Shown here: piece after piece, positions 1 through 27,007 of the stretch
Layout of the letters: the number at the start of each line of letters is the position of its first letter
Position numbering within the stretch: position 1 is the first letter of the stretch
Source: Candidatus Scalindua sp.
Lineage (GTDB): Bacteria > Planctomycetota > Brocadiia > Brocadiales > Scalinduaceae
Direction: 5' to 3'
NCBI GenBank assembly: GCA_031316235.1
Contig: JALDRA010000001.1
Span: 1,380,001 to 1,412,000 of the forward strand
Length of the DNA: 32,000 bases
The notes under the pieces: generated by a model
What the model was told of the DNA's origin: nothing
What the model saw: only the letters and a program-made list of their open reading frames with translations
Database searches by the model: none
Program-made: the position numbers and the translations under genes

Positions 1-1373
1 CTTCCAACATAGTAAAGAAAACCCTCTTCGTCTGATTTTACCAGATCACCGGAGTAGACAACCTTCTCCGTAAGCAAGGTCTCTTTGGAGGCAAGAGGAT
101 TCTGCCTGAACACCTCATCTGTCTTTACCGGATCATCCCAATATCCCAGGGATATCAATGCCCCACGGTGTACAAGTTCTCCAATTTCTCCCGGCCTGCA
201 CGGCTTATCTTCTTTATCCAGAATATAAATCTCAACCCCGGGGATTGCCTTTCCGATAGAGTCCGGTCTAGACCTTACTAACGATGGGTCCAGGTACGTT
301 GACCTGTGTGCCTCAGTTAAGCCATACATCAAATACAATTGAGTTTCAGGGAAGAGATCCAAAAGTCTGAATATAGTCTGCCTGGAAAGTTTCCCGCCGG
401 AATTGGTTATGTATCTCAGGTGTGCAAAATTATCATCCTCCCTCTTGTCCTTCATTTCTGCTATTCGATTCCAGATAACGGGTACTCCAGCAACACCCGT
501 TATCTTCTGTGCTCCTATGACCTTCAACAGGTCTTCGGGAAAAAGAAAATCATGAAGCACAATCGTCCCGCCTACTTTAATCGTTGTGAGCAACTGGTCT
601 AAACCATAATCGAAACTGAAGGGCAGGATACTGAGAACAATGTCATCACTATTCATATTCAGATAATTCGAAATTATTTCTGCACCATCCATCAGGTTTT
701 GGTGGGTAGTCATTATCCCTTTTGGAGAACCGGTACAACCAGAGGTATACATGATTGTTGCAAGATCTGAAGGTATACTAAAACCGATTTGGTTTTCGGT
801 TTTACCGGAAACCAAATCTTGGTTAATGGTATACTCGCTCAAATTTATCTCGGATTTTATCCGAAATCCAGTATGAGAGGAGTATATACAGACGGTTTCA
901 ATCAAGCAGTTCTTACTCTCTTCAGGGAGCCCACAAACGGACAGTACCTTTTCTGATCGAATCTCCGGAACAGGTTCAGCGTTTTCTTCAAAAAGGAATA
1001 TTCTTGAGATGGAGGTAAATCTACGTCCCACATAATCAACAGTTCTCAGTTTAAGGCTGTTACTGATGAGTAGTTTTATCCCGCAATCATTTGAAATATG
1101 TTCCAACTGGCTCTCTTTTAAAACGGGATTTAATAAAACGAATATCCCGCCAGCTTTAACAATTGCGAAAATAGATATTGCCTCTTCGATGGATTTTGGA
1201 AGATAGAGACCGATCCGATCTCCCTGTTTTGCGCCATTTTCCCGCAGCAATACTGCAAGCTTGTCGGATAATTCATCAAGTTCTCTGTATGTTATGGATT
1301 TAGAGCCAGAAACAATGGCCTTTTTCTCTGAAAACCCTGCACAGGAGTCTCTAAGAATTGCCTGTGTTGTCAT
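1..1373 (-). CDS. AMP-dependent synthetase/ligase (acyl-CoA or acyl-carrier-protein ligase family); the 3' end runs off the window
   Basis: Absent from the ORF track because the window edge truncates it. My reverse-strand translation from the ATG at 1373-1371 stays open to base 1. It begins MTTQAILRDSCAGFSEKKAIVSGSKSITYRELDELSDKLAVLLRENGAKQGDRIGLYLP. It contains the adenylation core motifs IMYTSGCTGSPKG and YSGDLVKSDEEGFLYYVGR. The start overlaps the ACP stop by 23 nt. Confidence 0.85.
   Translation of the reverse strand, partial: MTTQAILRDSCAGFSEKKAIVSGSKSITYRELDELSDKLAVLLRENGAKQGDRIGLYLPKSIEEAISIFAIVKAGGIFVLLNPVLKESQLEHISNDCGIKLLISNSLKLRTVDYVGRRFTSISRIFLFEENAEPVPEIRSEKVLSVCGLPEESKNCLIETVCIYSSHTGFRIKSEINLSEYTINQDLVSGKTENQIGFSIPSDLATIMYTSGCTGSPKGIMTTHQNLMDGAEIISNYLNMNSDDIVLSILPFSFDYGLDQLLTTIKVGGTIVLHDFLFPEDLLKVIGAQKITGVAGVPVIWNRIAEMKDKREDDNFAHLRYITNSGGKLSRQTIFRLLDLFPETQLYLMYGLTEAHRSTYLDPSLVRSRPDSIGKAIPGVEIYILDKEDKPCRPGEIGELVHRGALISLGYWDDPVKTDEVFRQNPLASKETLLTEKVVYSGDLVKSDEEGFLYYVG
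773..889. repeat. Family-1 117-bp TIR repeat, copy A, lying inside the AMP-ligase CDS
   Basis: Bases 808-889 match 25925-26032 almost base for base, apart from a 28-nt internal indel. Examples are gaaaccaaatcttggttaatggtat and actcgctcaaatttatctcggattttatccgaaatccagtatgagaggagtata. The ends are gtatac(t) and (a)gtatatac. The copy contains a 15-bp hairpin at 786-800/804-818. Its length of 117 nt equals 39 codons. Confidence 0.8.
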
Positions 1374-1626
1374 ATTCGATTGATACATTTTTTTTTGCCA
1401 GGAGTTTGCCGATTGCATCGATCGTTTCAAAATTTCTGTGTGTCATATCATCAGTTGTGAATTCCACCCCATACACTCTCTGCAGATGAGCAACAAGTTC
1501 AAGGATATTCATCGAATCCAACAATCCACTTTCCAATAAGGATTCACGTATAGTGATACCGGTTTCCTGAGGTGTGACATCAAGAAAAGATAAAATTTCT
1601 GATTTTAGTTTTGCAATCGATGTCAT
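1351..1626 (-). CDS. Acyl carrier protein / phosphopantetheine-binding carrier protein
   Basis: The 91-aa acidic four-helix-type sequence has the attachment motif GLLDSMNILELV (Ser of the DSM motif). It is translationally coupled to the downstream AMP ligase through an overlap. Confidence 0.8.
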   Translation of the reverse strand: MTSIAKLKSEILSFLDVTPQETGITIRESLLESGLLDSMNILELVAHLQRVYGVEFTTDDMTHRNFETIDAIGKLLAKKNVSIEYDNTGNS

Positions 1627-1761
1627 GTATTACTTTCCCAGGAATTCGCCAGACGTAACCATTACCCTGTTAGAATTTTTTAAAAAGCAATTTCTGGAAA
1701 TATCTGAAATGTTTCTCAACTCCTGCCAGAGAGAATCAAATAAAAACAAAAAACAGCGATG

Positions 1762-1796
1762 GTATACTCATCTTATAGTGGGTTTCGTATAAATAC
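1762..1796. repeat. Family-1 repeat, terminal fragment (solo end)
   Basis: gtatactcatcttatagtgggtttcgtataaatac aligns with the end of copy B (acatactcatcttgcaatggttttcggataaaat) and with the reverse complement of copy C. It lies in the gap between the EBP gene and the ACP gene. Confidence 0.55.
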
Positions 1797-1812
1797 CCTC
1801 AAGGAAACATAT

Positions 1813-2886
1813 TCATTTTGCATCATCCGTCCGAATGCCATAGTCCTCCATCTTTCTATAAATAGTCGACCGGCTGACACCCAGTTTTTCTGCGGCCTCA
1901 GAGATATTGCCTCTCGTAATACTTATTGCCTGGCGAATAAAGACTTCTTCAACTTCACTCAAAGGGATTACCTCTCCTCTTTTAAGGGATACCTCCAATT
2001 TTGACAACCCAAACTCAAGAGATTCTACCATTTTAAGGTTGCTCTCTTTCACATCGGGAAAATCAAAATGTTCAGGAAGTAAGACATCATGGTTTGCGGC
2101 GGCTACCAGGATAGCCCTGCGAATAGCATTCTGGAGCTGACGGATATTTCCAGGCCAGTGATAATTTACCAGTTTTTCCATGGCACTGGAATCAACTTTA
2201 GTTATCCTTCTACCGGATAACGTATTATATCTTTTAACAAAACAATGAACTAATTCCGGGATATCATCTTTCCTCTGGCGTAACGGGGGTATTTCTATTT
2301 TAAATACGGCGATCCTGTAATAGAGATCTTCTCTGAACCTGTTCGATTGTATCTCTTCCAAAAGATCCTGATTACTCGCAGAAACAATACGTACATCTGT
2401 TTTTATGGGTTTGTTTCCACCAACTCTTTCAAAAACCTGTTCTTCAATCACCCGCAAAATTTTCGACTGAGTAGTCAGACTCATTCCATTTAATTCATCA
2501 AGAAACAATGTACCGCCATTGGCTATTTCAAATTTCCCTATATATTGTTGTGTTGCTCCCGTAAACGATCCTTTTTCATAACCAAATAGCTCACTTTCTA
2601 TCAAATTTTCAGGAATCGCTGCACAATTGATGGCGCAGAAAGGTTTTTTACTTCTTATCCCCCGGTAATGCACTGCCCGTGCAACCAATTCCTTTCCGGT
2701 ACCCGTTTCTCCTTGAATAACTACCGGAACATCACTTTCCAGAACTGTTTGTATATTCTTCAGGACATCTTTAATTTCTTTGCTGCTCCCAATGATCCTC
2801 CAGAGATCAGGTTCCTCTCTGAGTCTGAATTCCTGTTGCAACTCTGAAGAGCTTTCAGCAGTTTCTGTTGCCGTATACTTGTCCAA
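1813..2886 (-). CDS. Sigma-54-dependent transcriptional activator (bacterial enhancer-binding protein) with no N-terminal sensory or receiver domain
   Basis: Walker A is GETGTGKE. The sigma-54 contact loop is a variant, GSFTGAT (consensus GAFTGA). [10 protein letters not shown] and Walker B LFLDEL are present. The C-terminal Fis-type HTH reads [20 protein letters not shown]. Only about 30 aa precede the AAA+ core. The TTG start at 2886 is preceded by an AGGGGA Shine-Dalgarno-like site. Confidence 0.85.
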
Positions 2887-2897
2887 AATACTTTCCC

Positions 2898-3809
2898 CTA
2901 TAAAGCAATTACGGAAATTCTGTATTTATTCGCCGACTCGATAACCTGCTCCTTATCGAGTATAAGTGTCATTCCAGCCTCTATTGCCAAGGTACTTACA
3001 CCTGTTTGCCTTAAATGATCAATTGTTTCCAGGCCGATAGTTGGTAAATCAAAACGTAAATCCTGATTTTTTTTACTTACTTTGATCACCACGACATCGC
3101 CCCGTCCGAGTAAAGCGCCACGCTTTATCGTTTCGTTTGTACCATCAACTGCTTCAACCGCGAGAACTGTCTTGTTCTTAAGAACAATGCATTGCCCTAT
3201 CTCCATCCTTGCTATATCTTTTGCAATGTCCCAACCAAACTCAATATCGGCCATTTCTCTTTCCGAAGGGGTCCGTTTCGTCAGACAACCCTTCCCTGCA
3301 ACAAGATGTTTCACGTATTCAAGAGAACTCATAAGTTGAATACCATCCAAAGCCAATTCATCAGCAACAGCTTCCAATATTGAGTGATCATGTTTACTCC
3401 TTACCTTTTTGTACCACATATTAATAGTTCTTAGATCCGGCCTGAATTTCAGGTGTTTGAGCCTTGAATGAATATGCGATTTTGTTAAACCACCTGCCAT
3501 GACAGCTCTTTCAATCTGTTCGCCTTTAAAAGTCTTGATCAGCTTGCCGATCTTGGCAACGCCGACCCAGTATAATTTATCCACATATTTTTCAATTTCC
3601 GGGGAGGCCTCATCCTTAATCCCCACAGCAATTATGTCTATTCCTTTGGCCCTGGCACTTTGGGCAAAAAGTATGGGAAAACGCCCGTTGCCGGCAATCA
3701 GACCTATTCTTTCCCTGCCCCCAACTGCTTTTCTAATTGGGTTACCTTCTTCTGCAGACTCTTTATTGTCTCCCTCATTTCCGGTAACTTCTGGAGAATT
3801 ACATAACAT
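2898..3809 (-). CDS. lpxI: UDP-2,3-diacylglucosamine pyrophosphatase LpxI (DUF1009 family); start uncertain
   Basis: The conserved N-terminus [16 protein letters not shown] and the overall LpxI-like sequence fit the family, and the gene lies immediately downstream of lpxD. The only ATG, at 3809, creates a 106-nt overlap with lpxD. The conserved core starts exactly at the lpxD stop. Confidence 0.7.
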
Positions 3810-4753
3810 CTTCTCATCCTTTCAATCTCTATTGCCGGTGTTCCCAGATACGTGTTATCTGGAGGTAGATCCTTAATAACCCCGGACCAGCCACCGACCG
3901 TTACATTATCCCCGACAGTAACATGGCCGGCAACTCCCGCCCCCCCTGCAAGAATCACATGATTACCGATCTTAACCGAACCAGCGATACCAACCTGTGA
4001 TGTTACCAGGGTATCCTCACCAATTTCAACATTATGCGCTATAATAACCTGACTGTCAATCTTGGTTCCTCTCTTTATCCTCGTTTCTCCCAGGACCGCG
4101 CGATTTATCGTTGTATTAGCACCAACATCGACATCATCTTCGATTACCGTTGTGCCTACTTGTGGAATCTTATAGTACTTATGCCCATCCGGGGCATACC
4201 CGTATCCACTGCAACCGATCACAACATTACTGTGAATAGTCACGCGTTCACCAATTTTAGTACCGTTATAAATTACGGTATTCGGGTATAGAATGGTATC
4301 CGTTCCTATTTGACAATCATCCCCGACATAAACACCTGGATGCAAAACAACATTGTCGGCAATCCTTGTATTTTCTCCAACAAAAACGTATGGATAAACC
4401 GTTACATTGGAACCAATTTCTGCAGACTCTCCGATTGTTGCAAACCTGTCGCAGGTACCAGGATATTTTGTTTCGGGATTCATCATCAGATCCATAATCT
4501 TCGCAAATGCCAGGTACGGATTTTTGGTAACCAACAGGTTTTTATCTCCAGTCTTTATGCCTGGGGAGACAATAACGGCTGAAGCCTTCGTCTGATCGAT
4601 CTTTTTAATATATTTCTCATTAGAGACAAAGGTTATATATCCCTCGGTGGCGACATCAATAGTCATTACCCCCCTGATTCGTATATTCTCGTTTCCGAAA
4701 ACATCTCCGCCCACATAATCAGCCAGCTCTCTTAATGTTTTTTCCATCTCCAT
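3704..4753 (-). CDS. lpxD: UDP-3-O-acylglucosamine N-acyltransferase LpxD
   Basis: The N-terminal domain (LRELADYVGGDVFGNENIRIRGV) is followed by a long run of left-handed beta-helix hexapeptide repeats and a C-terminal helical tail. Confidence 0.9.
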   Translation of the reverse strand: MEMEKTLRELADYVGGDVFGNENIRIRGVMTIDVATEGYITFVSNEKYIKKIDQTKASAVIVSPGIKTGDKNLLVTKNPYLAFAKIMDLMMNPETKYPGTCDRFATIGESAEIGSNVTVYPYVFVGENTRIADNVVLHPGVYVGDDCQIGTDTILYPNTVIYNGTKIGERVTIHSNVVIGCSGYGYAPDGHKYYKIPQVGTTVIEDDVDVGANTTINRAVLGETRIKRGTKIDSQVIIAHNVEIGEDTLVTSQVGIAGSVKIGNHVILAGGAGVAGHVTVGDNVTVGGWSGVIKDLPPDNTYLGTPAIEIERMRRCYVILQKLPEMRETIKSLQKKVTQLEKQLGAGKE

Positions 4754-5678
4754 CTACTCCTGAACAGTGTGTTGAATTTCCATAAATTTTCCTGATGACA
4801 AAAAAGATACACAGCAATAAAAGCCACGCCAGAACCCCTGTTACCAGCTGGCTATCACCAAACAACCACCCCAACCTCTCCCTGATACGAACGAGAAAGA
4901 TACCATCTGCCTTCATCATAAATACCCATCCAGAATGTAAGCCAATCGAAAGATAGAGTGATTTTGTTTTGATATATGCATATGAAAGCACAACACCAAT
5001 GAGAAACAGTCCGACCATTGCAGGTACATTCTCCATGAACTGAAAAAAGAGTGGTTTGAAAAAAGCTGTTATAGTTTTCACACCTACAAATACCTGGAAT
5101 CCCCGTGAAACAGGGTAATCCGCCTGGAAAAAGTGAAGCAGGGAATAAATTAGGCTGCTCACACAAATGGCAAGAGGAACAGACATATCCTCCATAAAAG
5201 ACTTTAAAAGAAAACCCCTGAAAAAAACCTCTTCTATAAATCCTATAAGGCATCCTATTAAGAGATATGTGAGAACTTTAGAAATAACAGTCCCAGCCGA
5301 ATGATAATCACAATGAACCATGCTGGCACCGAAAAACAGCGCAATAAGATAGAAAATGAGCAGTGATCCAATGGCAAGTGAACCTCCTAAGAAAAACTGC
5401 CGACACCAGCCCGTCTCTGCTTTTATGCCCGCAAGCATCAAAGTTCCCACTTTCAGAGATTTCCTGAAGACTAAAAATACCAGTAAGGCAGTAATCATTA
5501 AAATCCTTCGCATTACCTTTCCGAAGTCGTACACACCATCCTCGTAATCAACAGTTTCTGCCAAAAAATCAACTTTTCCCACCATAAAATCCAAAGGTAT
5601 TTTCTTTATTGGTGCAAAAATACAACTGAAAATTAAAATGAGAAAAAAAATGAGAATCAGGCTCTTGTATTTTTTCAT
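4719..5678 (-). CDS. CPBP-family (CAAX/Abi) intramembrane glutamic protease
   Basis: The protein is polytopic and carries the motifs FIEEVFFRGFLL (EExxxR), LIYSLLHF and GLHSGWVF. Confidence 0.75.
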   Translation of the reverse strand: MKKYKSLILIFFLILIFSCIFAPIKKIPLDFMVGKVDFLAETVDYEDGVYDFGKVMRRILMITALLVFLVFRKSLKVGTLMLAGIKAETGWCRQFFLGGSLAIGSLLIFYLIALFFGASMVHCDYHSAGTVISKVLTYLLIGCLIGFIEEVFFRGFLLKSFMEDMSVPLAICVSSLIYSLLHFFQADYPVSRGFQVFVGVKTITAFFKPLFFQFMENVPAMVGLFLIGVVLSYAYIKTKSLYLSIGLHSGWVFMMKADGIFLVRIRERLGWLFGDSQLVTGVLAWLLLLCIFFVIRKIYGNSTHCSGVDGDGKNIKRAG

Positions 5679-5746
5679 TTATTTTTCCTGACAGAGGTAT
5701 AACCCGAACCCGGTACATTCATGTAAGGGTAATCCACAGCTTCTGT

Positions 5747-5774
5747 ATTATATAGTTTCTTCTCTAATTATCAA
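5747..5774 (-). promoter_or_regulatory. Candidate sigma-70 promoter for the CPBP-lpxD-lpxI-EBP gene string
   Basis: On the minus strand the site reads TTGATA, a 16-nt spacer, then TATAAT. It lies about 70 nt upstream of the ATG at 5678. Confidence 0.4.
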
Positions 5775-5991
5775 TAGTACAGATAAGAACATTGCCTCTC
5801 TTTAAATACCTCAGCTTCTGAGCATCTCTCACCGTTACTCAGGCAAACCTGTTATAAGTGCAGGAGGAGAAGGGGAAGAACACACATACCTATTCAGTAA
5901 CAGACCACAAGAGATCAGATACAGGACTTTCTTCCGAGGCAGAATGATTCAATAGAGTGCAACCAAAAGGACCCCTTGCATTGTTTTTGGC

Positions 5992-6019
5992 TTGACATGT
6001 AAAATTTCAAATGTATCAT
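5992..6019 (+). promoter_or_regulatory. Candidate sigma-70 promoter upstream of the putative structured RNA or leader
   Basis: The site reads TTGACA (5992-5997), a 16-nt spacer, then TATCAT (6014-6019). An alternative -10 of TAATAT lies at 6028-6033. Confidence 0.35.
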
Positions 6020-6103
6020 GGCTGTACATAATATCCGGAAAATGATGAGACGGGGCTTGAACGAAACAACTTCTTTAAGCAATGATCAAGAGAAGACTTA
6101 GGG

Positions 6104-6313
6104 TCCAGATAAAACAGCAGGGTATTGTATCGCGTTCAGGTATGACAGAAAGAACCAGTCAGATCTGTAAGGGTCGTCTGAGAACCTCGGGGAGTCAGCG
6201 AGTGAAGTGTGAAGGAAGATGCTCTGATAATAAGAAACCCGGCAAGGGCGGACGGCATCCACTCTGGCAGGAAGAGGCGAGGATGAAACATTATTTCCCT
6301 CTGAGCGTCTGGA
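6104..6313 (+). ncRNA. Candidate structured non-coding RNA or long 5' leader, family not recognised
   Basis: The stretch is GC-enriched and stop-poor, with three overlapping junk ORFs in different frames, and is embedded in AT-rich intergenic DNA. The nested helices are as follows. 6104-6110 pairs with 6307-6313. 6115-6122 pairs with 6297-6303 with one bulge. 6145-6149 pairs with 6164-6168. 6173-6180 pairs with 6249-6256, using two G.U pairs that work only on the plus strand. 6256-6260 pairs with 6281-6285, enclosing 6262-6265 paired with 6273-6276. Confidence 0.35.
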
Positions 6314-6365
6314 ATACTTAAAAGGCAATAACATTTACACAATCAGCAGAGCGGGCAAAAGCGTA

Positions 6366-6617
6366 ATGCGCAAATCACGTACAACACCCTTTAAAATAAG
6401 AGTAAAAAAATATAAACAGATTTTCGGGTGGGTCTCCTCATGTGCATTTATTGCTTCCACAATTCTGCTGATCATGTCTCTTATGGAGAGCAAATTTAAA
6501 AAAGAGTATGCAACGGTCTCTTTTATCTACTTCCTAATCTCGGTTACCTTTTTCCTATCAATAGCCGCGTTGATCGGCTACATATCGATGGTGATAGTTT
6601 CAAAAAGACATAAATAG
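6366..6617 (+). CDS. Small hypothetical membrane protein (basic N-terminus plus two predicted TM helices)
   Basis: This 83-aa ORF has two clear hydrophobic spans (WVSSCAFIASTILLIMSL and FIYFLISVTFFLSIAALIGYISMVIV). I recognised no family. Confidence 0.4.
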   Translation: MRKSRTTPFKIRVKKYKQIFGWVSSCAFIASTILLIMSLMESKFKKEYATVSFIYFLISVTFFLSIAALIGYISMVIVSKRHK

Positions 6618-6805
6618 TGTTTCCGTTCAAGCACTGAATAGAAGCCAGTTTTTCAAAACCGTGCTGTCAAACACAAAAGAACCCTTCAGACTGTCAAAGC
6701 CTGCCGACATTGTATCGCACGTGGTTTATCCCTGCCGGGATTTCAGATTATTTCTGTAAAATTAAATCAGCTGTTCTCTGAATAAAATTTTCAGTAGTAA
6801 AAGAG

Positions 6806-8284
6806 CTACCGGACTCTTCTTTGTTCGAAAATGGAATGTTCGACTCTCAACGTTTCTTCTGAAATCAAATATTCATCTACTCTTTCTGCCACCTGGCGCC
6901 CTCTGAAAACAGCATCAACAACCAAGGTTGCTCCAAGCTCAGCATCACCAGCCGCAAATATACCCGGGAGTTTAGTCATCATATTTTCATCGATTTTAAT
7001 ATTCCCTTTTCTGTTATACTCCAGTTTCAGGTCCATGAGAAGAGGACTGTGTTCACAATGCTGAAACCCGATTGAAAGAAATACCAGGTCAGCCGGGAGT
7101 ACTTTTTCGGAATCTGGTATTTCAGCACAAGTTCCACGCGAGCCGTCTTCGGGCCTGGTCCAGTCAAGCTCCACCACCTTCACCCCTGTTAACCACCCCC
7201 CGTCACCAACAAATTCTTTTGTCTGCAATTTCCAGAATCTTTTACACCCTTCTTCCTGAGAAGTACTTGTCTTGAATATTTTCGGTCTCTCCGGCCATGG
7301 ATTGCAACGAGGGCGTTTTGGGGGAGGAATATCCTGATAATAGATATGTGTCACGCTGGCAGCACCCTGACGAATACTCGTCCCGATACAATCTGAACCC
7401 GTATCTCCTCCTCCGATCACAATAACCTGTTTCCCATTTGCCGTTATCGACTCATCTTCAGGAATAACATCACCGGCAACCCTCCGGTTCTGTTGAACTA
7501 AAAAAGGGACAGCAAAGTTGACACCCTTGAGATTTCTGCCCGGGATCTCCAAATCCCTTGGAACCTGTGCACCGATACAGATAATGACGGCATCAAATGT
7601 TCGCGACAGATATCTTCCCGAAATATCAACTCCAACATTTACCGAGGTTTCGAAAATCACTCCTTCCGCCCTGAGTTGCTCCAGTCTCCTATCAAGAACC
7701 CGGCGCTCTATCTTATAATCGGGAATTCCATATCGCATCATACCTCCAACACGGTCATCTTTCTCAAATACAATAACATCGTGACCCTTCCTCGCTAATT
7801 GTTGTGCAGCTGCCAGCCCCGCAGGACCTGATCCAACAATGGCGATACGTCTACCGGTTTTGATGGCAGCAGGTTGTGGTTCGATATAACCTTCCTCCCA
7901 TCCTCGCTCAACAATCTGTTTCTCTATCTGCTTAATGGCAACCGCATTCTGATTAATCGATAAAGTGCATGCAGGTTCGCAAGGCGCGGGACACACTCTT
8001 CCCGTAAATTCCGGGAAGTTGTTCGTTGAATGTAAAAGCTTCAAAGCTCTCTTCCAGTGGCCTCGATACACCATATCGTTCCAATCCGGAATTCTATTTT
8101 TAACAGGGCACCCATAGATATGGCAGGTTGGAATACCACAGTCCATACAACGGCTTGCCTGATCTTCCAGTTCGTCGGTAGAAAGATTTCCCTCAATTTC
8201 ATTAAAATCCTTAATCCGTTCTGCAATCAGGCGTTTTGCGCCAGTCTTTCTTGCCGTTTCAAGAAAACCGGTAGGCTTACCCAT
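6806..8284 (-). CDS. gltD: Glutamate synthase (NADPH) small subunit
   Basis: The Fe-S cysteine motifs CMDCGIPTCH and CPAPCEPAC and the dinucleotide fold VGSGPAGLAAA are present. The gene overlaps the gltB stop by 8 nt. Confidence 0.9.
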   Translation of the reverse strand: MGKPTGFLETARKTGAKRLIAERIKDFNEIEGNLSTDELEDQASRCMDCGIPTCHIYGCPVKNRIPDWNDMVYRGHWKRALKLLHSTNNFPEFTGRVCPAPCEPACTLSINQNAVAIKQIEKQIVERGWEEGYIEPQPAAIKTGRRIAIVGSGPAGLAAAQQLARKGHDVIVFEKDDRVGGMMRYGIPDYKIERRVLDRRLEQLRAEGVIFETSVNVGVDISGRYLSRTFDAVIICIGAQVPRDLEIPGRNLKGVNFAVPFLVQQNRRVAGDVIPEDESITANGKQVIVIGGGDTGSDCIGTSIRQGAASVTHIYYQDIPPPKRPRCNPWPERPKIFKTSTSQEEGCKRFWKLQTKEFVGDGGWLTGVKVVELDWTRPEDGSRGTCAEIPDSEKVLPADLVFLSIGFQHCEHSPLLMDLKLEYNRKGNIKIDENMMTKLPGIFAAGDAELGATLVVDAVFRGRQVAERVDEYLISEETLRVEHSIFEQRRVR

Positions 8285-11200
8285 TATACACCTCCTCTGT
8301 AGCTAAAACTGTCTCATCATCAAGATGTTCTTCCTGACGAATCCTCTCTAATGATTTTCTATATTCCATTGGTATAACTTTAACGAATAAAGGCAGACTG
8401 CTTTCCCAGTGATCAAGGATCTCTTTTCCCCTGACACTTTGGGTATATTTTACATGTTTTTCCAACAAGGCATAAAGGATTTTTTTGTCCTCTTCAGTCC
8501 AGACACTTTCCAAATCAACCATATCCAAATTGCACTTCATACCGAACCATTCGTGCTCATCATAAACATAGGCTATGCCACCGCTCATCCCGGCTCCAAA
8601 ATTGTTCCCTGTCTGCCCGATAACGACCACAATACCCCCAGTCATATACTCGCATCCGTGATCACCAACGCCTTCGACAACTGCCGTTGCTCCGCTGTTC
8701 CTCACAGCAAAACGCTCACCCACCATGCCATGGAGATATAGCTCCCCTTTTGTAGCACCATAGAGGATCACATTACCGGCGATAATATTTTCATGAGGTT
8801 TGAATGTTGTTCCCCGAGGAGGGTTGATGATAATTTTCCCTCCAGACATACCCTTGCCAACATAGTCGTTTGCATCACCTTCGACACGTATGGTTACCCC
8901 GGGAACCATAAATGCTCCAAGGCTCTGTCCGGCAGACCCGGTAAAATTAAGCTGAATCGTATCTTCAGGTAGTCCGAGTGAACCGAATTTCCGGGTTATT
9001 TCACTACACAGCATAGTCCCCACCGTTCGATTAACATTCCTGATCGGAAGATTGATGATAGTGGGTTCCTTTTTTGTTAATGTTCCTTCTGACAACCTGA
9101 TCAGTTCATTATCCAGCGCTTCTGACAACTCATGGTCCTGCGCTTTAACACATCGTAAGTTGTTCTTGCCTCCGGGATCGGAGTGCGTTAAAAGTGCACT
9201 GAAATCCAGATGCTTCGCTTTCCAATGGTTTGCAGCATCTTGTACCTCAAGTTTATCAACGCGCCCTACCATTTCATCCACCGTTTTCATACCCAACTCA
9301 GCCATATATTCGCGCATTTCCCGGGCTATAAATCGGAAATAACGCTCTACATATTCAACTTTTCCTTCAAACTTCTCACGGAGAACAGGATTTTGCGTTG
9401 CAACGCCGACCGGGCAGGTATTCATATGACATTTTCTCATCAAAACACATCCCAGGGTAACTAAAACGGATGTCCCGAATCCGTATTCCTCGGCACCAAG
9501 CAGAGCCGCAATCACACAATCTCGGCCCGTCTTGAGCTGGCCATCCGTCTGTACAACAATTCTGTCTCGCAGCCCGTTGGCTACAAGTGTCTGCTGGGTT
9601 TCCGACAATCCGAGCTCCCAAGGCACACCAGCATGTAATATGCTGGACCAGGGTGCCGCCCCGGTGCCCCCATCATACCCGCTGATAAGCACAAGATCTG
9701 CCTTCGCTTTCGCTACGCCTGCAGCAACGGTACCAACACCCGCAGCAGAAACGAGCTTCACCGATACCTTTGCTTTCGGATTGGAACAATGAAGATCATA
9801 AATTATCTGTTTCAAGTCCTCTATTGAATAAATGTCATGGTGAGGTGGAGGAGAAATCAGCGAAACACCGGGTGTAGTATGCCTTACTTTCGCAATTTCA
9901 GGACTCACCTTATGTCCGGGCAGGTGCCCCCCCTCTCCGGGTTTCGCTCCCTGGGCAATTTTTATCTGAAGTTCCTCTGCATTCAAGAGGTACTCGCTGG
10001 TTACTCCAAAACGGCCAGATGCAACCTGCTTGATTTTGGAGATTTTCCAGTCACCATTCGGGAGCTTCTTAAATCTTTCAGGGTCTTCACCCCCTTCTCC
10101 AGAATTACTCCGCCCGCCAATGCGGTTCATTGCTATAGCAATCGCCTCATGAGTTTCCCTACTGACAGAGCCAAAAGACATTGCTGCTGTAACAAACCGC
10201 TTCATGATATCTTCTATCGGTTCGACTTCTTCAATGGGAACCTTCACACACTCTTTAAATTTAAACAGACCTCGCAATGTAGCTAGCTCTTTCGTCTGAT
10301 TATCTATCAGCCGGGTAAACTCTTTGAAAACTTTATAGTCATCATTGCGGGTAGCCTGCTGGAGTTTGTATATTGTCTCGGGAACCCAGAGATGTTTTTC
10401 TCCTCCATATTTCACAGAAAAACGTCCCCCGATATCCAGGAGTTCATCAGGATGACCATTAGGTGGATATGCTTTCCGGTGCCGCGCATAAACTTCCTGT
10501 GCGATCTCCTCCAGGCCAATACCGCCTACCCGTGAAGATGTGTTACAGAAATATTGATCGATTACTGATCTATCTATCCCTATAGCCTCAAAAATCTGAG
10601 ACCCGAAGAAACTCCGGATAGTTGAAATACCCATCCGGCTAAACGTCTTCAAAAGACCTTTCTTAATTGCAGAGATGTAGCTGTCCATCGCATCTTCAGC
10701 AGACATCCCATTTCCAATGAGCGATTGTTCGGACAATTCCCTCACTGAACTGAAAGCAACATAGGGACAAATAGCTGAAATCCCGAAAGCAATAAGAAGA
10801 GAAAAGTGCATGACTTCCCGTGCCTCTCCCGTTTCAATAATCAATCCACATGCATTCCTGAGACCCTTCTTTATCAAATGGTGATGCAGACCGGACACAG
10901 CAAGAAGTGCTGGAATAGGGCATCGGTTCTTATCCATACTCCTGTCTGTGAGAATCAGAATATTGGCACCATCTTCGATATGTCTCTCCGCTTTTTCAAA
11001 TAGTGACTCCATAGCTGAATATAACGCGCTCCCCCCCCCTTCGGCAGAAAAAAGGATGTCGACTTTCCGAACCAACATGTGCGGATGGTTAGCGTTACGA
11101 ATACGCCACATATCAGTAGGACTGAGTATGGGATGTGACAACTTCAGCTGCCTGCACTGTTCCGGTGTTTCTTCAAGGAGTCCACCTTTTTTTCCGAGAA

Positions 11201-12902
11201 AACTCATCAGCGACATCACAAGCTCTTCACGCAAAGGATCGATAGGCGGGTTCGTTACCTGTGCAAACAATTGCTTGAAATAATGAAACAAAAGCTGGGG
11301 CTTATTGGACAGCACCGCAAGAGCATTATCATTTCCCATGGCCCCAATTGGCTCCTGCCCCTGACTGGACATAGGAACAATCAAGGAATTAACATCTTCT
11401 TCAGTATAGCCAAATGCATGCTGCTGGATCCGAAGCTCTTCCAGGTTAATTTTTGGCACCCTGGACGGATTAAAGAGTCCGCGGAGTTCAATCAGGTTTT
11501 CTTTCAGCCAACGCCGATACGGTGATTGTCTTGATATTTTTGCCTTGATTTCATTGTCCGGTACCACCCGGTTCTGCTGCAAATCTACCAGAAACATTTT
11601 GCCGGGTTGTAACCTCCCGCGTTGACGGACCTTATCTCCCGGGATATCAAGGACACCGGTTTCAGAAGCCATGACTATCATGCCGCCTTTGGTTACCGTG
11701 TAACGCGCAGGCCTTAATCCATTCCTGTCGAGCATGGCCCCTATATATCGCCCATCAGTAATAACAATAGCGGCGGGGCCATCCCATGGCTCCATAAAAG
11801 AGGCATGATACTCATAAAAGCCGCGTTTATCTTCACTCATATAGTATTTTTTTCCGTAGGCTTCAGGAACCATCATCATAGCTGCATGAGAAAGAGATCT
11901 GCCTGCATGGATGAGTAATTCAAACACGTTATCAAAAATTGCCGAATCGCTGCCAAATTCATCATGAATAATTGGCTTAATTTTATCTATGTCAGCACCA
12001 AATGATTCCGACCGTAAATCTTTCTCTCGGGATTTCATCTGATTAATATTCCCGCGCAGGGTATTGATTTCTCCATTATGTGCAAGGCAGCGGAAAGGCT
12101 GTGCCAGATTCCAGGCTGGTAAAGTATTTGTGCTGTAACGCTGATGAATAATGCCAAACGCCGACATAAAACGAGAATCACCAAGATCAGAAAAAAAGAG
12201 AGGCAATTGGGTGCCCGTCAGCAATCCTTTGTAAACAACGGTCTTACAACTCAAGCTGCAAACATAAAACTGGCTGAAATCTCCCGTCGTCCAGGAGGAA
12301 ATCTCCTTTTCTAGGGAACGCCTCATGATATAAAGTCTCCTTTCAAGCTCTTCACCTTCATGTGTGCCACCCGATACGAAAATCTGATATATTGTGGGTT
12401 GTGTTACGCGGCTGAGTTCACCCAAGCAATCACTCTTGACAGGAACACTTCTCCACCCAAGCAGTGTGCAATTTTCAGACTCAACCATTTCCTGAACTGT
12501 TTTTCTGCATTTTTCCCTCAATGATTCTTCCGGCGGAAGAAAAAACATTCCCACCCCGTACTTTCCGGGCTGAGGCAATACAATACCCTGACCCTCACAC
12601 ACTCTGCGGAAGAATTCATCAGGAATCTGGACCATAAGTCCACCGCCGTCTCCTGTCCTTTTATCACTTCCGACAGCACCTCGGTGTTCCAGATTTATTG
12701 AAACCCGGATCGCATTCTTTATCACATCATGCGTCGGAGTGCCGTCAATCTGTGCCACAAAACCAACACCGCAGGCACCGTGCTCAAACTTTGGATCGTA
12801 CATCCCATTCCGTTTAGGCTGACCCGCCAGATTAACGTTAAAGAAATTATTACTCTCAGGCATACCAGTTTTTTTCTTTTCCATTATCATTTCCATCCTC
12901 AA
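8277..12902 (-). CDS. gltB: Glutamate synthase large subunit (Ntn amidotransferase, FMN/Fe-S and GXGXG domains)
   Basis: The N-terminal nucleophile context is HGACGVGFVAQ. The FMN domain and the C-terminal beta-helix (GNNFGAGMSGG) are present. The track start is a TTG at 12902. ATGs at 12896 and 12890 follow a GAGGA site and are more likely starts. Confidence 0.95.
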   Translation of the reverse strand: MRMEMIMEKKKTGMPESNNFFNVNLAGQPKRNGMYDPKFEHGACGVGFVAQIDGTPTHDVIKNAIRVSINLEHRGAVGSDKRTGDGGGLMVQIPDEFFRRVCEGQGIVLPQPGKYGVGMFFLPPEESLREKCRKTVQEMVESENCTLLGWRSVPVKSDCLGELSRVTQPTIYQIFVSGGTHEGEELERRLYIMRRSLEKEISSWTTGDFSQFYVCSLSCKTVVYKGLLTGTQLPLFFSDLGDSRFMSAFGIIHQRYSTNTLPAWNLAQPFRCLAHNGEINTLRGNINQMKSREKDLRSESFGADIDKIKPIIHDEFGSDSAIFDNVFELLIHAGRSLSHAAMMMVPEAYGKKYYMSEDKRGFYEYHASFMEPWDGPAAIVITDGRYIGAMLDRNGLRPARYTVTKGGMIVMASETGVLDIPGDKVRQRGRLQPGKMFLVDLQQNRVVPDNEIKAKISRQSPYRRWLKENLIELRGLFNPSRVPKINLEELRIQQHAFGYTEEDVNSLIVPMSSQGQEPIGAMGNDNALAVLSNKPQLLFHYFKQLFAQVTNPPIDPLREELVMSLMSFLGKKGGLLEETPEQCRQLKLSHPILSPTDMWRIRNANHPHMLVRKVDILFSAEGGGSALYSAMESLFEKAERHIEDGANILILTDRSMDKNRCPIPALLAVSGLHHHLIKKGLRNACGLIIETGEAREVMHFSLLIAFGISAICPYVAFSSVRELSEQSLIGNGMSAEDAMDSYISAIKKGLLKTFSRMGISTIRSFFGSQIFEAIGIDRSVIDQYFCNTSSRVGGIGLEEIAQEVYARHRKAYPPNGHPDELLDIGGRFSVKYGGEKHLWVPETIYKLQQATRNDDYKVFKEFTRLIDNQTKELATLRGLFKFKECVKVPIEEVEPIEDIMKRFVTAAMSFGSVSRETHEAIAIAMNRIGGRSNSGEGGEDPERFKKLPNGDWKISKIKQVASGRFGVTSEYLLNAEELQIKIAQGAKPGEGGHLPGHKVSPEIAKVRHTTPGVSLISPPPHHDIYSIEDLKQIIYDLHCSNPKAKVSVKLVSAAGVGTVAAGVAKAKADLVLISGYDGGTGAAPWSSILHAGVPWELGLSETQQTLVANGLRDRIVVQTDGQLKTGRDCVIAALLGAEEYGFGTSVLVTLGCVLMRKCHMNTCPVGVATQNPVLREKFEGKVEYVERYFRFIAREMREYMAELGMKTVDEMVGRVDKLEVQDAANHWKAKHLDFSALLTHSDPGGKNNLRCVKAQDHELSEALDNELIRLSEGTLTKKEPTIINLPIRNVNRTVGTMLCSEITRKFGSLGLPEDTIQLNFTGSAGQSLGAFMVPGVTIRVEGDANDYVGKGMSGGKIIINPPRGTTFKPHENIIAGNVILYGATKGELYLHGMVGERFAVRNSGATAVVEGVGDHGCEYMTGGIVVVIGQTGNNFGAGMSGGIAYVYDEHEWFGMKCNLDMVDLESVWTEEDKKILYALLEKHVKYTQSVRGKEILDHWESSLPLFVKVIPMEYRKSLERIRQEEHLDDETVLATEEVYNG

Positions 12903-12926: not shown

Positions 12927-12955
12927 ATATCAGGTGGAACATACTCATCTTGCAA
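12927..12955 (-). promoter_or_regulatory. Candidate gltBD promoter whose -35 lies in the terminus of repeat copy B
   Basis: On the minus strand the site reads TTGCAA (12955-12950), a 17-nt spacer, then TGATAT (12932-12927). It lies about 25-35 nt upstream of the gltB start candidates. Confidence 0.3.
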
Positions 12956-13055
12956 TGGTTTTCGGATAAAATCCGAGATAAAATTGAGCGAGTACAAGTC
13001 CTCGGCAAGCTTTTGTCCGGGGATACCCAAAAGAGAGATTATAAGATGAGTATAC
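12939..13055. repeat. Family-1 117-bp TIR repeat, copy B (intergenic, between gltB and the START-domain gene)
   Basis: The perfect 11-bp terminal inverted repeats are atactcatctt (12941-12951) and aagatgagtat (13043-13053). The core ggttttcggataaaatccgagataaaattgagcgagtacaagtcctcggc is the reverse complement of copy C. Confidence 0.8.
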
Positions 13056-15093: not shown

Positions 15094-17190
15094 ATGCAGC
15101 AGAAAAAATCCGTGTGCCCCTATTGTGGAATAGGGTGTGGTTTATTAGTTGATTATGAGCATGGCGAGATTGTCCAAGTCAACCCAATGACAAACCACCC
15201 CGCAAATCAAGGGATTATTTGCCAATTACCCGTTAATCTGCCAAAGCTTTTCGCACACAAAGATCGATTGAGAAATCCGATGAGAAGGCAAAACAACCAA
15301 TTGATACCCGTCAGCTGGGACGAAGCTATCTCACATGTTGCGCTCGAACTTAACCGCATTATAAAGGATTACGGTCCCGATTCAGTTGCATTCTTTGGAG
15401 GTGCCGCCTGTTTTTCTGAAGAATATTATCTTGTAAACAAGTTAATGAAGACTGTTATCGGTTCTAATAATGTAGAAAGTACATCACGATTGTGTATGGT
15501 CAGCACAGCAATGGGCTTAATTTCAACACTCGGCGCTGATGCCCCCCCTGCCTGTTATGCGGATATAGAAGAAGCAGATCTTTTCTTTATTGCCGGCAAC
15601 AATATGGCTGTATCATTGCCCGTAATATTTAATCGTGTCCGTGCAGCTCGTGAGAAAAATTCCCACACGAAAGTAATCGTTGTAGATCCCCGAAAAACAG
15701 AGACTGCATCAATTGCCGACATCCATTTGCAGTTAAATCCCGGTACTGACGTTGCCTTAAACAATTCCCTGGCCTATGTCCTCATCAATAAGGGCTTTAT
15801 TGATGAGGACTTTATCAAGAAATACACTACAGGATTCGAAGATCTGAAAGAATTAGTACAAGAATATCCGCCCGCCCGTGCTGCCCAAATTACGGGTTGC
15901 AACGAAAAACAGATTTTTGAGACAGCACAAACAATTGGCCAGTCAAAGGCAATGCTCACGTTCTGGTTTCAAGGGTATAACCAATCAACACAAGCCGTCT
16001 TCAAAAACAACACCTTGCACAACTTATCATTGTTAACGGGTAATTATTGTCGTGTTGGCACTGGACCTCTGTCGATAACGGGTGAGGCAAATACGATGGG
16101 TTGCAGGTGGGGAGGAGCACTATCCCATCTCCTGCCTGGAATGAGGTTGGTTTCCAATAGTAAGCATCGAGAAGAGATTGCAGAACTTTTTGGTACTCCG
16201 GCAGAAAAAATAAATCCCATACCAGGTCTTTCTATCATAGATATCATCAAAGGCCTTCACTCCGGTGATGTGCGTGCACTGTGGGTCCTCGCATCAAACC
16301 CAGCTGCTTCACTCCCCGATACGGAATGGGTGAAAGCAGCACTGTCAAAAGCTGAATTGCTCATAGTGCAGGATATTTTCCATCCTACAGAAACATCGAT
16401 GCTTGCAGATGTTGTTCTTGCGGGGGCACAATGGTGCGAAAAAACCGGAACATTCATATCCTCAGAACGACGTATCGAACTGGTCGAGAAAATTGTAGAC
16501 CCCCCGGGAAATGCTAAATCCGATATCGAGATTATCTGTATGATAGCAAGAGAGATGGGATTTTCTGATAAATTTCCCTTTACCTCACCCGAAGAAGTAT
16601 TTGATGCGTTGAAAAAAACCACCCGTGGACGTATCTGTGATACAACTGGTGTAAGTTATGACCGGTTACGAAATAATACCGGTCCGCAATTACCTTGTCC
16701 CGAAGATGATCATCCCGGTACAATGCGATTATTTGAAGACAGGCAATTTCCCAGGCCGGATGGACGTGCAGCACTGCTTGCCCGACATTATCAAGGCCCT
16801 GCAGAAAAGACCGACAGTGAATATCCCTTTGCTCTCATAACTGGCCGCATGGCAAATCATTTCAACACGGGCACACGCACCGGCCGTCTTGCCGATAGTA
16901 ACGACACAGCACCTGTCAATTTTGTGGAAATCCATCCAGATGACTCCAGGGATATTGAACTTGCAGATGGGGATGAGGTAGATATCATTTCTCGCCGGGG
17001 CAGCGTTCGATGTGTCGTTTCAATCCAGGAAAGGATATTGACCGGGACTGTTTTCATGACTTTGCACTTTGGGGAAACTGTTTCAGGCAAAAAAAACACA
17101 CTGGCTAACCTTGTTTGCAATCCTGTTTACGATAACCATTCTAAGCAGCCGGAATACAAGTTCTGTGCAGTTAAAATTAAGAGAATTTAA
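15094..17190 (+). CDS. Cytoplasmic molybdopterin (bis-MGD) oxidoreductase resembling assimilatory nitrate reductase NarB/NasA
   Basis: There is no Tat or Sec signal. The N-terminal 4Fe-4S motif is CPYCGIGCG...C43. The putative Mo-ligand context is STSRLCMVSTAMG. The length of 698 aa and a C-terminal molybdopterin dinucleotide-binding domain fit the family. The substrate cannot be assigned from sequence. Confidence 0.7.
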   Translation: MQQKKSVCPYCGIGCGLLVDYEHGEIVQVNPMTNHPANQGIICQLPVNLPKLFAHKDRLRNPMRRQNNQLIPVSWDEAISHVALELNRIIKDYGPDSVAFFGGAACFSEEYYLVNKLMKTVIGSNNVESTSRLCMVSTAMGLISTLGADAPPACYADIEEADLFFIAGNNMAVSLPVIFNRVRAAREKNSHTKVIVVDPRKTETASIADIHLQLNPGTDVALNNSLAYVLINKGFIDEDFIKKYTTGFEDLKELVQEYPPARAAQITGCNEKQIFETAQTIGQSKAMLTFWFQGYNQSTQAVFKNNTLHNLSLLTGNYCRVGTGPLSITGEANTMGCRWGGALSHLLPGMRLVSNSKHREEIAELFGTPAEKINPIPGLSIIDIIKGLHSGDVRALWVLASNPAASLPDTEWVKAALSKAELLIVQDIFHPTETSMLADVVLAGAQWCEKTGTFISSERRIELVEKIVDPPGNAKSDIEIICMIAREMGFSDKFPFTSPEEVFDALKKTTRGRICDTTGVSYDRLRNNTGPQLPCPEDDHPGTMRLFEDRQFPRPDGRAALLARHYQGPAEKTDSEYPFALITGRMANHFNTGTRTGRLADSNDTAPVNFVEIHPDDSRDIELADGDEVDIISRRGSVRCVVSIQERILTGTVFMTLHFGETVSGKKNTLANLVCNPVYDNHSKQPEYKFCAVKIKRI

Positions 17191-20432: not shown

Positions 20433-20492
20433 AGGAGTGCTGGTTTTTGGGATAAATTCGAGGAAAACGGAGTGAGTCTACCATTAACCAGG

Positions 20493-20532
20493 CTTTGATT
20501 TTTAGAAAACTCTAAAACCAAAGTGGTTTTTT
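20493..20532 (+). terminator. Candidate rho-independent terminator after the DUF169 gene
   Basis: An imperfect AU-rich stem pairs ctttgatttttag with ctaaaaccaaag (one mismatch, one bulge). It is followed by tggtttttt. Confidence 0.4.
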
Positions 20533-20620
20533 AATACAATACGCTTTTGTGATTTGTCATGGTTCCCGATAAACACTTTTTTTCCGCCTATTGTTGAAAT
20601 TTTTTATATGGACATTTTTC

Positions 20621-22280: not shown

Positions 22281-22408
22281 CATTTATATATCATTTCAGA
22301 AGTTGCCAAGCCAAGAAATTCCTTCCAATCCTCTACCATTTCATTAAAAGCTGATAGCGATGGCGGAGAAAGTAGGTATCCTCTTGACTTTTCCCATAAT
22401 TGATGAGA
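22281..22408. repeat. Family-2 paralogous segment, copy 1 (degraded gene remnant or shared upstream element)
   Basis: ttcagaagttgccaagccaagaaattccttccaatcctctaccatttcattaa aligns with 26113-26165. The flanking tttcccataa block is also shared. Confidence 0.65.
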
Positions 22409-25915: not shown

Positions 25916-26032
25916 GTATATATTGAAACCAAATCTCGGTTAATGGTATCCCCGGACAAAAAACGCCGAGGACTTGTACTCGCCCAATTTTATCTCGAAT
26001 TTTATCCGAAATCCAGTATGAGATGAGTATAC
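25916..26032. repeat. Family-1 117-bp TIR repeat, copy C (intergenic)
   Basis: The copy runs from gtatatattgaaaccaaatctcggttaatggtatccccggacaaaaaacgccgaggacttgtactcgcccaattttatctcgaattttatccgaaatccagtatgagatgagtatac. It shares its right 60 nt with copies A and B, its middle with B and its left module with A. Confidence 0.8.
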
Positions 26033-26097: not shown

Positions 26098-26210
26098 CAT
26101 TTTTATATTTTTTTCAGAAGTTGTCAAGCTAAGAAATTCATTCCAATTGTCTATCATTTCATTAAGCGGTGACTTTTTCAGTAAGATGTTCTCTTTCCCA
26201 TAAACGTGAG
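26098..26210. repeat. Family-2 paralogous segment, copy 2
   Basis: ttcagaagttgtcaagctaagaaattcattccaattgtctatcatttcattaa aligns with copy 1 at roughly 80-85% identity by eye over the core. The minus-strand reading gives ...AAAHVYGKENILLKKSPLNEMIDNWNEFLSLTTSEK, against copy 1 ...FNEMVEDWKEFLGLATSE. Confidence 0.65.
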
Positions 26211-26316
26211 CGGCAGCGCTGCTCAACTTCCACGACTCAGCTTTATCATTAAGTCAGAGCTCTTACGGGATTAATTCCAGGCATCTTAGTGCTTACGAAA
26301 CCTCACGGCTTCGCCC

Positions 26317-26883: not shown

Positions 26884-27007
26884 AGTAGTTGAACCAACTA
26901 CCCAGGTACAAGGCGCGTAATAATTTCAGAACCAGAGCGTACTCAAGTACGTGAGGATTACGGAATTCTTACCGCAACGCTGTCGATGGGCAGTTGGTTC
27001 AACTACT
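26884..27007. repeat. Long-range 20-bp inverted repeat pair enclosing about 84 nt between the convergent sugE and yidD genes
   Basis: agtagttgaaccaactaccc (26884-26903) pairs with gggcagttggttcaactact (26988-27007) with one mismatch. The left arm is preceded by a tandem gtagttgaa repeat. The right arm overlaps the yidD stop. Confidence 0.7.

Follow-up and report, generated by a model that had tools for sequence, protein, structure and literature searches.

How did a conserved adenylating enzyme come to carry, in frame, a segment that recurs as a repeat in intergenic DNA, and is this where such repeats usually settle? The question is raised by a stretch of 32,000 nucleotides (nt) from the marine anammox bacterium Candidatus Scalindua sp. 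(GenBank assembly GCA_031316235.1, contig JALDRA010000001.1, positions 1,380,001–1,412,000 of the forward strand; G+C content 42%), the whole of which is referred to here as the window. At its left edge lies a minus-strand gene for an acyl-CoA ligase (AMP-forming) of the exosortase A system-associated type. An earlier, sequence-only reading of the window had placed a repeat-family copy inside this coding sequence with the frame left open, as our open reading frame (ORF) analysis and self-comparison confirm. Comparison with an empty allele now defines the event at base resolution, and a recent, strain-specific, in-frame insertion of a transposable element of the miniature inverted-repeat type (MITE) is well supported.

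The borders of the insertion are given by a syntenic contig of a sister strain (L001, ENA contig_38347), which matches the window at 96–98% nucleotide identity, encodes the orthologous protein P0002 and has a base-exact empty site. The empty allele reads …CTGAAGG-TA-TACAGACGG…, and the filled allele of the window reads …CTGAAGG-TA-[TACTAAAACC…GAGGAGTA]-TA-TACAGACGG…. The extra DNA occupies window positions 776–886, that is, 111 nt or 37 codons, and consists of a 109-nt element of the basic size class (copy A, plus strand, 776–884, delimited by the filled and empty sites and the family consensus) together with a duplicated TA, the filled allele having this dinucleotide on either side of the element (774–775 and 885–886). 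The target was the TA inside GTATAC at ligase codons Cys167/Ile168. Because this hexamer resembles the element ends, the sequence-only reading had drawn the segment too long, at 117 nt, 39 codons and residues 162–201; the empty site places it at residues 168–204 of the ligase, P0001. Copy A bears TACT...AGTA termini and is read by the ligase on its opposite strand, which yields the peptide IYSSHTGFRIKSEINLSEYTINQDLVSGKTENQIGFS with junctions ETVC-IYSSH and IGFS-IPSDLATIMYTSG (also …LIETVCIYSSHTGFR and …IGFSIPSDLATIMYTSGCTGSPK). On this one clean empty/filled pair the repeated target is TA, maximally TATAC; TA is favoured because the family-wide conserved unit is TA-TACT…AGTA-TA and conservation collapses directly outside it.

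Residues 168–204 are present only in P0001. All 14 aligned orthologues, ranging from P0002 (96% identical outside the gap) to proteins of other phyla at ~45% identity, show a clean gap, of 37 residues and not the roughly 39 foreseen; none conserves the peptide, which disposes of an objection that had been raised in advance. Since every outgroup orthologue lacks the segment, it was gained in the window lineage after the split from the L001 strain.

The inserted DNA belongs to an abundant Scalindua repeat family. Sensitive self-comparison of the window revealed five related copies, A to E, with E-values between copies within the 32 kb down to 1e-16, and the similarity of copy A to the others breaks off precisely where the element does. 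When one genome per species was scanned with a 20-nt core motif, at least 120 stretches matched; of the 80 loci listed, 77 belong to genomes of Scalindua or Scalinduaceae (SCAELEC01, RBC_AMX3 and one metagenome-assembled genome (MAG) of Scalinduaceae), and the few remaining matches fit our estimate of chance matches for a 20-nt motif. Among the matches listed, the family thus appears essentially confined to these genomes. In ~953 kb of Scalindua DNA, 123 complete elements could be paired, a density that by rough extrapolation would give hundreds of copies per genome. The basic form measures 112–113 nt including both TAs, of which copy A is a typical member; the size classes of ~112/113, 139/140, 166/167 and 194 nt differ by optional ~27-nt GC-rich internal modules carried by the larger ones. 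Of 121 copies, 108 are flanked by TA at either end, the TACT/AGTA termini are nearly invariant and the borders are sharp. The terminal inverted repeats are imperfect, with TACTnnnnnnnnnnTGGTTTTCGG at both ends, which take the form TACTAAAACCGATTTGG…/…GAGATGAGTA. Short (a 109-nt core), multicopy and devoid of a transposase gene or of any ORF beyond read-through frames, the elements conform to what is called a MITE. A literature search, with most subscription journals outside its coverage, found no description of MITEs in Scalindua or other anammox bacteria, and the family is apparently previously undescribed.

Each strand of the element folds strongly. Hairpin 1 of copy A (782–824) has a long stem and a TTTTA loop and includes arms at 786–800/804–818; this is the 15-bp hairpin noticed earlier, although 14 of the 15 positions, not all, are complementary. 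Hairpin 2 (833–883) has an outer stem TACTCGCTC/GAGAGGAGTA and an inner stem-loop, TCGGAT-TTT-ATCCGA, at 850–864. Predicted folding energies for 774–886 are −41.6 and −39.3 kcal/mol on the two strands (z ~−6.4 against shuffled sequences), and z ranges from −6.4 to −7.4 for copy A and the consensus. The helices, hairpin 2 among them, are kept in 28 basic copies, with double changes in just 2 of 26 pairs, too few to say much on covariation; on inspection by eye, two variants of the hairpin tip, CGG..CCG and TAGA..TCTA, seem compensatory, with a shifted register that leaves them outside the count of double changes. An Rfam gathering-threshold scan of the whole window and a tRNA/tmRNA scan gave no matches, so the element belongs to no known RNA family, and a scan of window positions 1–2000 for terminator and promoter consensus sequences found nothing in the element.

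These features allow us to propose how the ligase copy arose. We suggest that a non-autonomous, MITE-type element of 109 nt, lacking an ORF of its own, transposed recently into the ligase TA, and that it was mobilized in trans by a TA-duplicating, IS630/Tc1-mariner-like transposase, as the TA flanks would indicate. The long intervals between matching ends hold an insertion sequence (IS) of the IS110 family, a group II intron or host genes. One family copy (L087, 4439–6277) contains an IS110-family transposase with an internal stop codon, and another (L079, minus strand, 5395–7572) a group II intron reverse transcriptase, both assigned by eye from ORF translations. Family elements are thus themselves targets into which other mobile DNA inserts.

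What does the insertion mean for the enzyme? The ligase coding sequence (1–1388, minus strand; Pfam AMP-binding PF00501, E-value 6.6e-82) crosses the left window edge, its N-terminal 462 codons lying inside, and the window ORF is a 100% match to P0001, a 575-residue 'AMP-binding protein' encoded on the 4.15-Mb MAG contig. Membership in the ANL superfamily is evident from the PF00501 match, the intact P-loop motif TSGCTGSPKG (residues 215–224, window 717–746, minus strand; invariant in alignments of 15 and of 116 orthologues) and the ANL fold of an AlphaFold2 model built on 116 orthologues (mean pLDDT 87, pTM 0.87), with which Foldseek retrieved 4CL, CahJ and MenE at probability 1.0. As had been noted from the sequence, the insertion sits just upstream of the adenylation motif IMYTSGCTGSPKG, the distance being 10 residues, and in a variable region: PDB homologues do not align over residues 114 to ~190, distant orthologues are gapped there, and the site falls where length varies most within the enzyme family. 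In the model, residues 169–202 are the sole internal stretch with pLDDT below 50, a coil directly before strand 209–215, which leads into the P-loop T215SGCTGSPKG; the structural check proposed with the sequence-only reading therefore returned a low-confidence coil before the P-loop strand, which may be a surface loop. The strand and frame in which the gene reads the element happen to be stop-free, so that it still encodes a full-length ligase, with a hydrophilic loop of 37 residues, probably disordered, placed directly before the β-strand that leads into the ATP-binding P-loop. All invariant residues and catalytic motifs of the 116 orthologues are intact in P0001, which is consistent with retained enzyme function.

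The insertion may also have affected how the protein is named. Orthologues of P0001 are annotated 'acyl-CoA ligase (AMP-forming), exosortase A system-associated', and P0001 itself scores 588.5 bits with TIGR03098, below the curated NCBIfam cutoff of 592.35; the profile match is broken into two stretches at the insertion. As insert-free orthologues bear the family name, the shortfall, and with it the generic name 'AMP-binding protein', may be due to the MITE. The neighbourhood is that of a TIGR03098-type ligase: an acyl carrier protein (ACP) gene, presumed to encode its partner, lies directly upstream (1351–1626, minus strand; PF00550 PP-binding in the gene tables of L001 and of the short-read contig L128), and a PLP (pyridoxal phosphate)-dependent Orn/DAP/Arg decarboxylase gene follows in syntenic L001, at a position that in the window genome lies beyond the window. 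Besides the insert, this strain's ligase differs from its orthologues at a second place, the C-terminal tail: P0001 ends …SQC-MKAAFGLY, and close orthologues run ~10–25 residues further (…MKGPLSVYTDGFRASGCG; alignment columns 575–600).

Taken as a whole, the explanation that we consider probable is a recent TA-targeted transposition of a MITE from a selfish intergenic family into a ligase that has tolerated it; the copy would be an exceptional, strain-specific insertion, tolerated or only mildly deleterious, and not an adaptation. Several observations weigh against this explanation. A search of ~1 Mb of Scalindua DNA for a transposase with matching ends found none. The ligase junction is formally ambiguous over 5 nt (TATAC), and the TA duplication is drawn from a single clean empty/filled pair plus the family-wide flanks. 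Low pLDDT is expected wherever an alignment is empty, and is thus compatible with disorder or a surface position and no proof of either. The ratio of non-synonymous to synonymous substitution rates (dN/dS) between the filled and empty ligase alleles, 0.25, exceeds the other local values (0.04–0.22 for neighbouring genes, 0.22 for the adjacent ACP gene), and of the polarized amino-acid changes 10 fall on the window lineage and 3 on that of the sister strain.

The last two points also feed an alternative that agrees with ours on the event and differs solely on its consequence: that the insertion has inactivated the ligase or is doing so, the loop beside the P-loop strand or the mRNA hairpins (~−39 kcal/mol) abolishing folding, activity or translation, and that the ORF is open only because the event is recent. 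Several of the 10 changes lie near the insert (L162P and D167N, in alignment terms), the dN/dS is the highest among local genes, the C-terminal tail of P0001 is unlike that of all orthologues, the hairpins fold strongly on the sense strand, and the sole other verified in-frame case, P0269 (see below), is in a gene that lacks ~63 internal residues. Yet the 575-codon ORF is complete and keeps every motif that is invariant in the 116 orthologues, the dN/dS is well under 1 and similar to that of the ACP gene, the asymmetry of 10 to 3 is weak (one-sided binomial p ~0.05), the insertion falls within the most length-variable segment, and the terminator scan found no terminator-like site in the element. 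The changes and the dN/dS, which are compatible with some relaxation of constraint, would be at most a weak sign of it, and we regard inactivation as possible and rather doubtful.

Does the family dwell in genes? The search for further copies in coding sequences, proposed with the sequence-only reading, did not reveal such a habit. Among the 123 complete copies, a single one lies within a long ORF, namely the ligase copy, itself the ascertained case; 114 touch no ORF of at least 150 codons, and the overlap of the other 8 is limited to the upstream part of stop-to-stop frames. The added length modulo 3 is distributed 55 : 15 : 53 across copies, showing no in-frame bias, and the 112-, 139- and 166-nt classes are as common as the in-frame ones. 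At the protein level, a word-indexed profile search of a 5.8-billion-protein collection with the encoded peptide retrieved 17 proteins, all of 40–76 residues, and missed its positive control, P0001, so other genic copies are not excluded by that search. An exhaustive phmmer search of 1.84 billion representatives with the window peptide also gave 17 matches, a lower bound because proteins whose cluster representative (50% identity) lacks the insert are invisible to it; 14 are ORFs of 55–106 residues, mostly spurious, and three are longer. One of the latter, the phosphoribosyltransferase-like P0269 (L129 4001–4582, from the same metagenome as the sister strain), is a second verified in-frame case: its element is of the 143-nt class (L129 4327–4469), the DNA reads TA-TACT…AGTA-TA, and the element-encoded segment 109–156 falls between chain residues 166 and 172 of PDB 1wd5, relative to which the gene is without ~63 internal residues and is possibly decaying. 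P0267, in which the peptide directly follows a signal-peptide-like N-terminus, and P0272 are candidates. In-frame genic copies thus recur, rarely, with one to three possible cases beyond the ligase.

A second alternative reads these cases as the mark of a family adapted to genes in the manner of Rickettsia palindromic elements (RPEs), its translatable, in-frame elements repeatedly adding peptide loops to Scalindua proteins. The basic class does add exactly 111 nt, the ligase frame is open in most 113-nt copies (and in 44 of 123 copies overall), the size classes step by ~27 nt, and the ligase is joined by one to three more in-frame cases (P0269, which was verified against PDB 1wd5; P0267 and P0272, candidates). 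Against this, the single long ORF that holds a complete copy is the ascertained one, added lengths show no preference for multiples of three, and the phmmer matches are mainly short ORFs; two open frames of six are expected by chance in ~6% of AT-rich 113-mers (our estimate), and the open-frame counts are not independent, as family members share ancestry. We therefore think such an adaptation very unlikely. A similarly slim chance attaches to the idea of a MITE that is tolerated in coding DNA and has time and again supplied peptide loops to proteins of a free-living anammox bacterium, with the 111-nt class, stop-free in one frame, selected for translatability and with the ligase, the phosphoribosyltransferase-like protein and a putative secreted protein as candidate recipients; if true, RPEs would have a functional analogue in a host that is not an obligate intracellular bacterium. 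Given the single genic copy, the absence of an in-frame length bias and the mostly short, spurious ORFs that bear the peptide, the family does not habitually insert into coding sequence as RPEs do, and is an ordinary selfish intergenic repeat of Scalindua.

A third alternative, that assembly or binning misplaced a repeat in the ligase of the MAG contig, would draw on the filled allele being the single member of its protein cluster, on the exact protein not being on record in the contig index and on the tendency of these repeats to break short-read assemblies. The Logan contig L128 (SRR28338162), a separate short-read assembly, is nevertheless 100% identical to the window over 10.8 kb (849–11626) and crosses junction 886/887, covering 38 nt past the ligase/element junction before it breaks inside copy A. 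This independent support extends to that one junction and no further; with the exact element ends and the TA duplication, it argues against an artefact, which we consider extremely improbable. A scan of JGI metagenomes with a ligase 20-mer abutting the target gave zero matches and hence no measure of allele frequency. That duplicated ligase genes left the intergenic copies behind as fragments, a worry voiced with the sequence-only reading, or that the segment is ancestral ligase sequence lost elsewhere, has nothing in its favour beyond the initial similarity and is ruled out for practical purposes by similarity that ends exactly at the element borders, by at least 120 copies at unrelated loci in at least three genomes, by the absence of the segment from all aligned orthologues, near and far, and by an empty site that keeps a single TA, as a never-occupied target would.

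The insertion can be set beside known systems. The Correia elements (NEMIS) of Neisseria and other TA-duplicating MITEs are likewise ~100–160 bp long and non-coding, with imperfect terminal inverted repeats and no cognate transposase identified; Correia elements duplicate a TA target. Their sequence is unrelated, and the Scalindua element differs in its two separate hairpins and optional GC-rich internal modules. RPEs (Ogata et al. 2000, 2002, summarised in PMC10969869 and PMC3184786) offer the comparison first drawn for this locus. The ligase case resembles them as a palindromic selfish repeat of ~105–150 bp that sits in frame within the gene for a housekeeping enzyme, contributes a hydrophilic peptide where the fold may accommodate it and leaves a clean gap in the orthologue alignment. 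It parts from them in an apparently unrelated sequence, in its host, a free-living chemolithoautotroph where RPE hosts are obligate intracellular bacteria, in the clear TA flanks and modular size classes of its family, and in that family's overwhelmingly intergenic distribution (1 of 123 genic) without in-frame length bias, in contrast to the unusually high frequency of genic in-frame insertion of RPEs (2024 review, PMC10969869). The host, and a core 20-mer near-restricted to Scalindua and Scalinduaceae among the matches listed, place the element outside the RPE family. In its workings the ligase case thus resembles one RPE-type insertion, without being an RPE or sharing the RPE habit, so that the likeness proposed earlier holds for a selfish repeat in frame in a conserved enzyme and fails for the family as a whole.

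Nor is the phenomenon new to bacteria. The earlier remark that no equivalent was known holds for anammox bacteria as far as our search went; in-frame repeat fusions are on record for several bacteria, both free-living and pathogenic (PMC10969869, PMC3184786, PMC5896051), and fusions of MITEs with chromosomal ORFs are 'not unusual' for ERIC, BOX, QMITE1 and the Anabaena MITEs (PMC10969869). The QMITE1 and QMITE2 elements of Coxiella burnetii are at times in frame in ORFs or extend them, and they are hot-spots for an IS110-family element, IS1111, which inserts in QMITE2 (PMC5896051), a likeness to the IS110-family transposase within the Scalindua element of L087. QMITEs differ in size, in unrelated sequence, in direct repeats of 2–3 nt and 7–11 nt of variable sequence, and in their commoner genic overlaps. 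The cyanobacterial MITEs (Nezha; Anabaena MITEb and MITEe), ERIC and BOX share in-frame MITE–ORF fusions and free-living hosts, with transposition demonstrated by empty and filled sites (PMC3184786, PMC10969869); families and hosts are others, and the Scalindua case is internal to a well-defined catalytic domain, with an empty allele at 97% identity.

The remaining copies in the window show how the family ages. Those at 12939–13055 (copy B, minus strand) and 25916–26032 (copy C, plus strand) had been found from the sequence and are far beyond chance (with BLAST, 5e-16 and 5e-13 are the E-values in a 32-kb search space); the opposite orientation of the former had been missed, as had copies D (20440–20537, minus strand) and E (1762–1793, minus strand). 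Copies B and D are thus inverted relative to copy A. Nor are the copies nearly identical, as had been claimed: copy A matches B, C and D at 72–74% with indels (74% over 115 nt for C and over 94 nt for B), and B and C, 84% identical to each other, differ from it in structural subclass. Copy C, intergenic, carries a 27-nt module, lacks half of hairpin 1 and is common to the window and the sister strain. Copy B, also intergenic, carries a GC-rich module of 27 nt, and the sister strain has a partly deleted form of this copy; the intergenic copy D is truncated at one end, the missing terminus being kept in the sister strain; and copy E, between the genes for a sigma-54 activator and the ACP, is an internally deleted remnant of which only the right end is left, with a full ~147-nt copy at the same site in L001. 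Sites B, D and E thus differ between the strains by internal or terminal deletions, which implies that intergenic copies decay neutrally. Right-end-like sequence (TACTCATCT…) occurs at both termini of copy B, whose 11 terminal bases match perfectly, and of a copy at L119 ~7743–7913, which suggests chimeric or recombinant subclasses within the family. The closest relative of copy A (93.75% identical, L123 17097–17208) lies within a 2.3-kb insertion of the sister strain (L123 15675–18011, against window 26293–26295) that holds an AAA-ATPase fragment, a HicB antitoxin-like gene and the MITE copy. Logan short-read contigs of the window strain end within copies, L122 at 12977 (B) and 25967 (C) and L128 at 849 (A); the family fragments short-read assemblies of Scalindua. 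L122 offered no further empty sites.

Other repeats share this DNA. A second, unrelated MITE-like element of 124 nt (window 26884–27007), with 21-nt terminal inverted repeats (AGTAGTTGAACCAACTACCCA / TGGGCAGTTGGTTCAACTACT), has 59 BLAST hits in the ~1-Mb Scalindua sample, often adjoining first-family copies, and the sister strain has ~480 nt extra at its position. A 61-nt direct repeat occurs at two intergenic sites, 22294–22354 and 26112–26172 (85–89% identical), the first of them conserved in the sister strain (L123 11672–11730), and may represent a regulatory segment or a 5′ leader common to both. The sister strain also has 240 nt extra (L001 reverse complement, 16687–16926, against window ~6311–6316), intergenic, flanked by GGAATA and GGGATA and belonging to neither repeat family. 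The large glutamate synthase gene, one ORF of 1541 codons in the window (8277–12902), is three ORFs (284 + 347 + 911 residues) in the ENA contig, which indicates frameshifting indels in that assembly, be they sequencing errors or real changes; small indels in L001 therefore call for caution, and the 111-nt difference is unaffected.

The general picture of how such elements behave is unchanged, and the ligase insertion is a clean example of a phenomenon known from other bacteria. For Scalindua, the repeats, together with the second, unrelated family, fragment short-read assemblies of uncultured, biogeochemically important bacteria, and the insertion appears to push one protein just below its family naming threshold (588.5 vs 592.35 bits). 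The locus is also a well-resolved natural experiment, in which the same conserved adenylating enzyme occurs with and without a MITE-encoded loop of 37 residues in strains that are 97% identical, and the filled/empty pair allows a direct test of insertion tolerance beside the P-loop of a catalytic domain.

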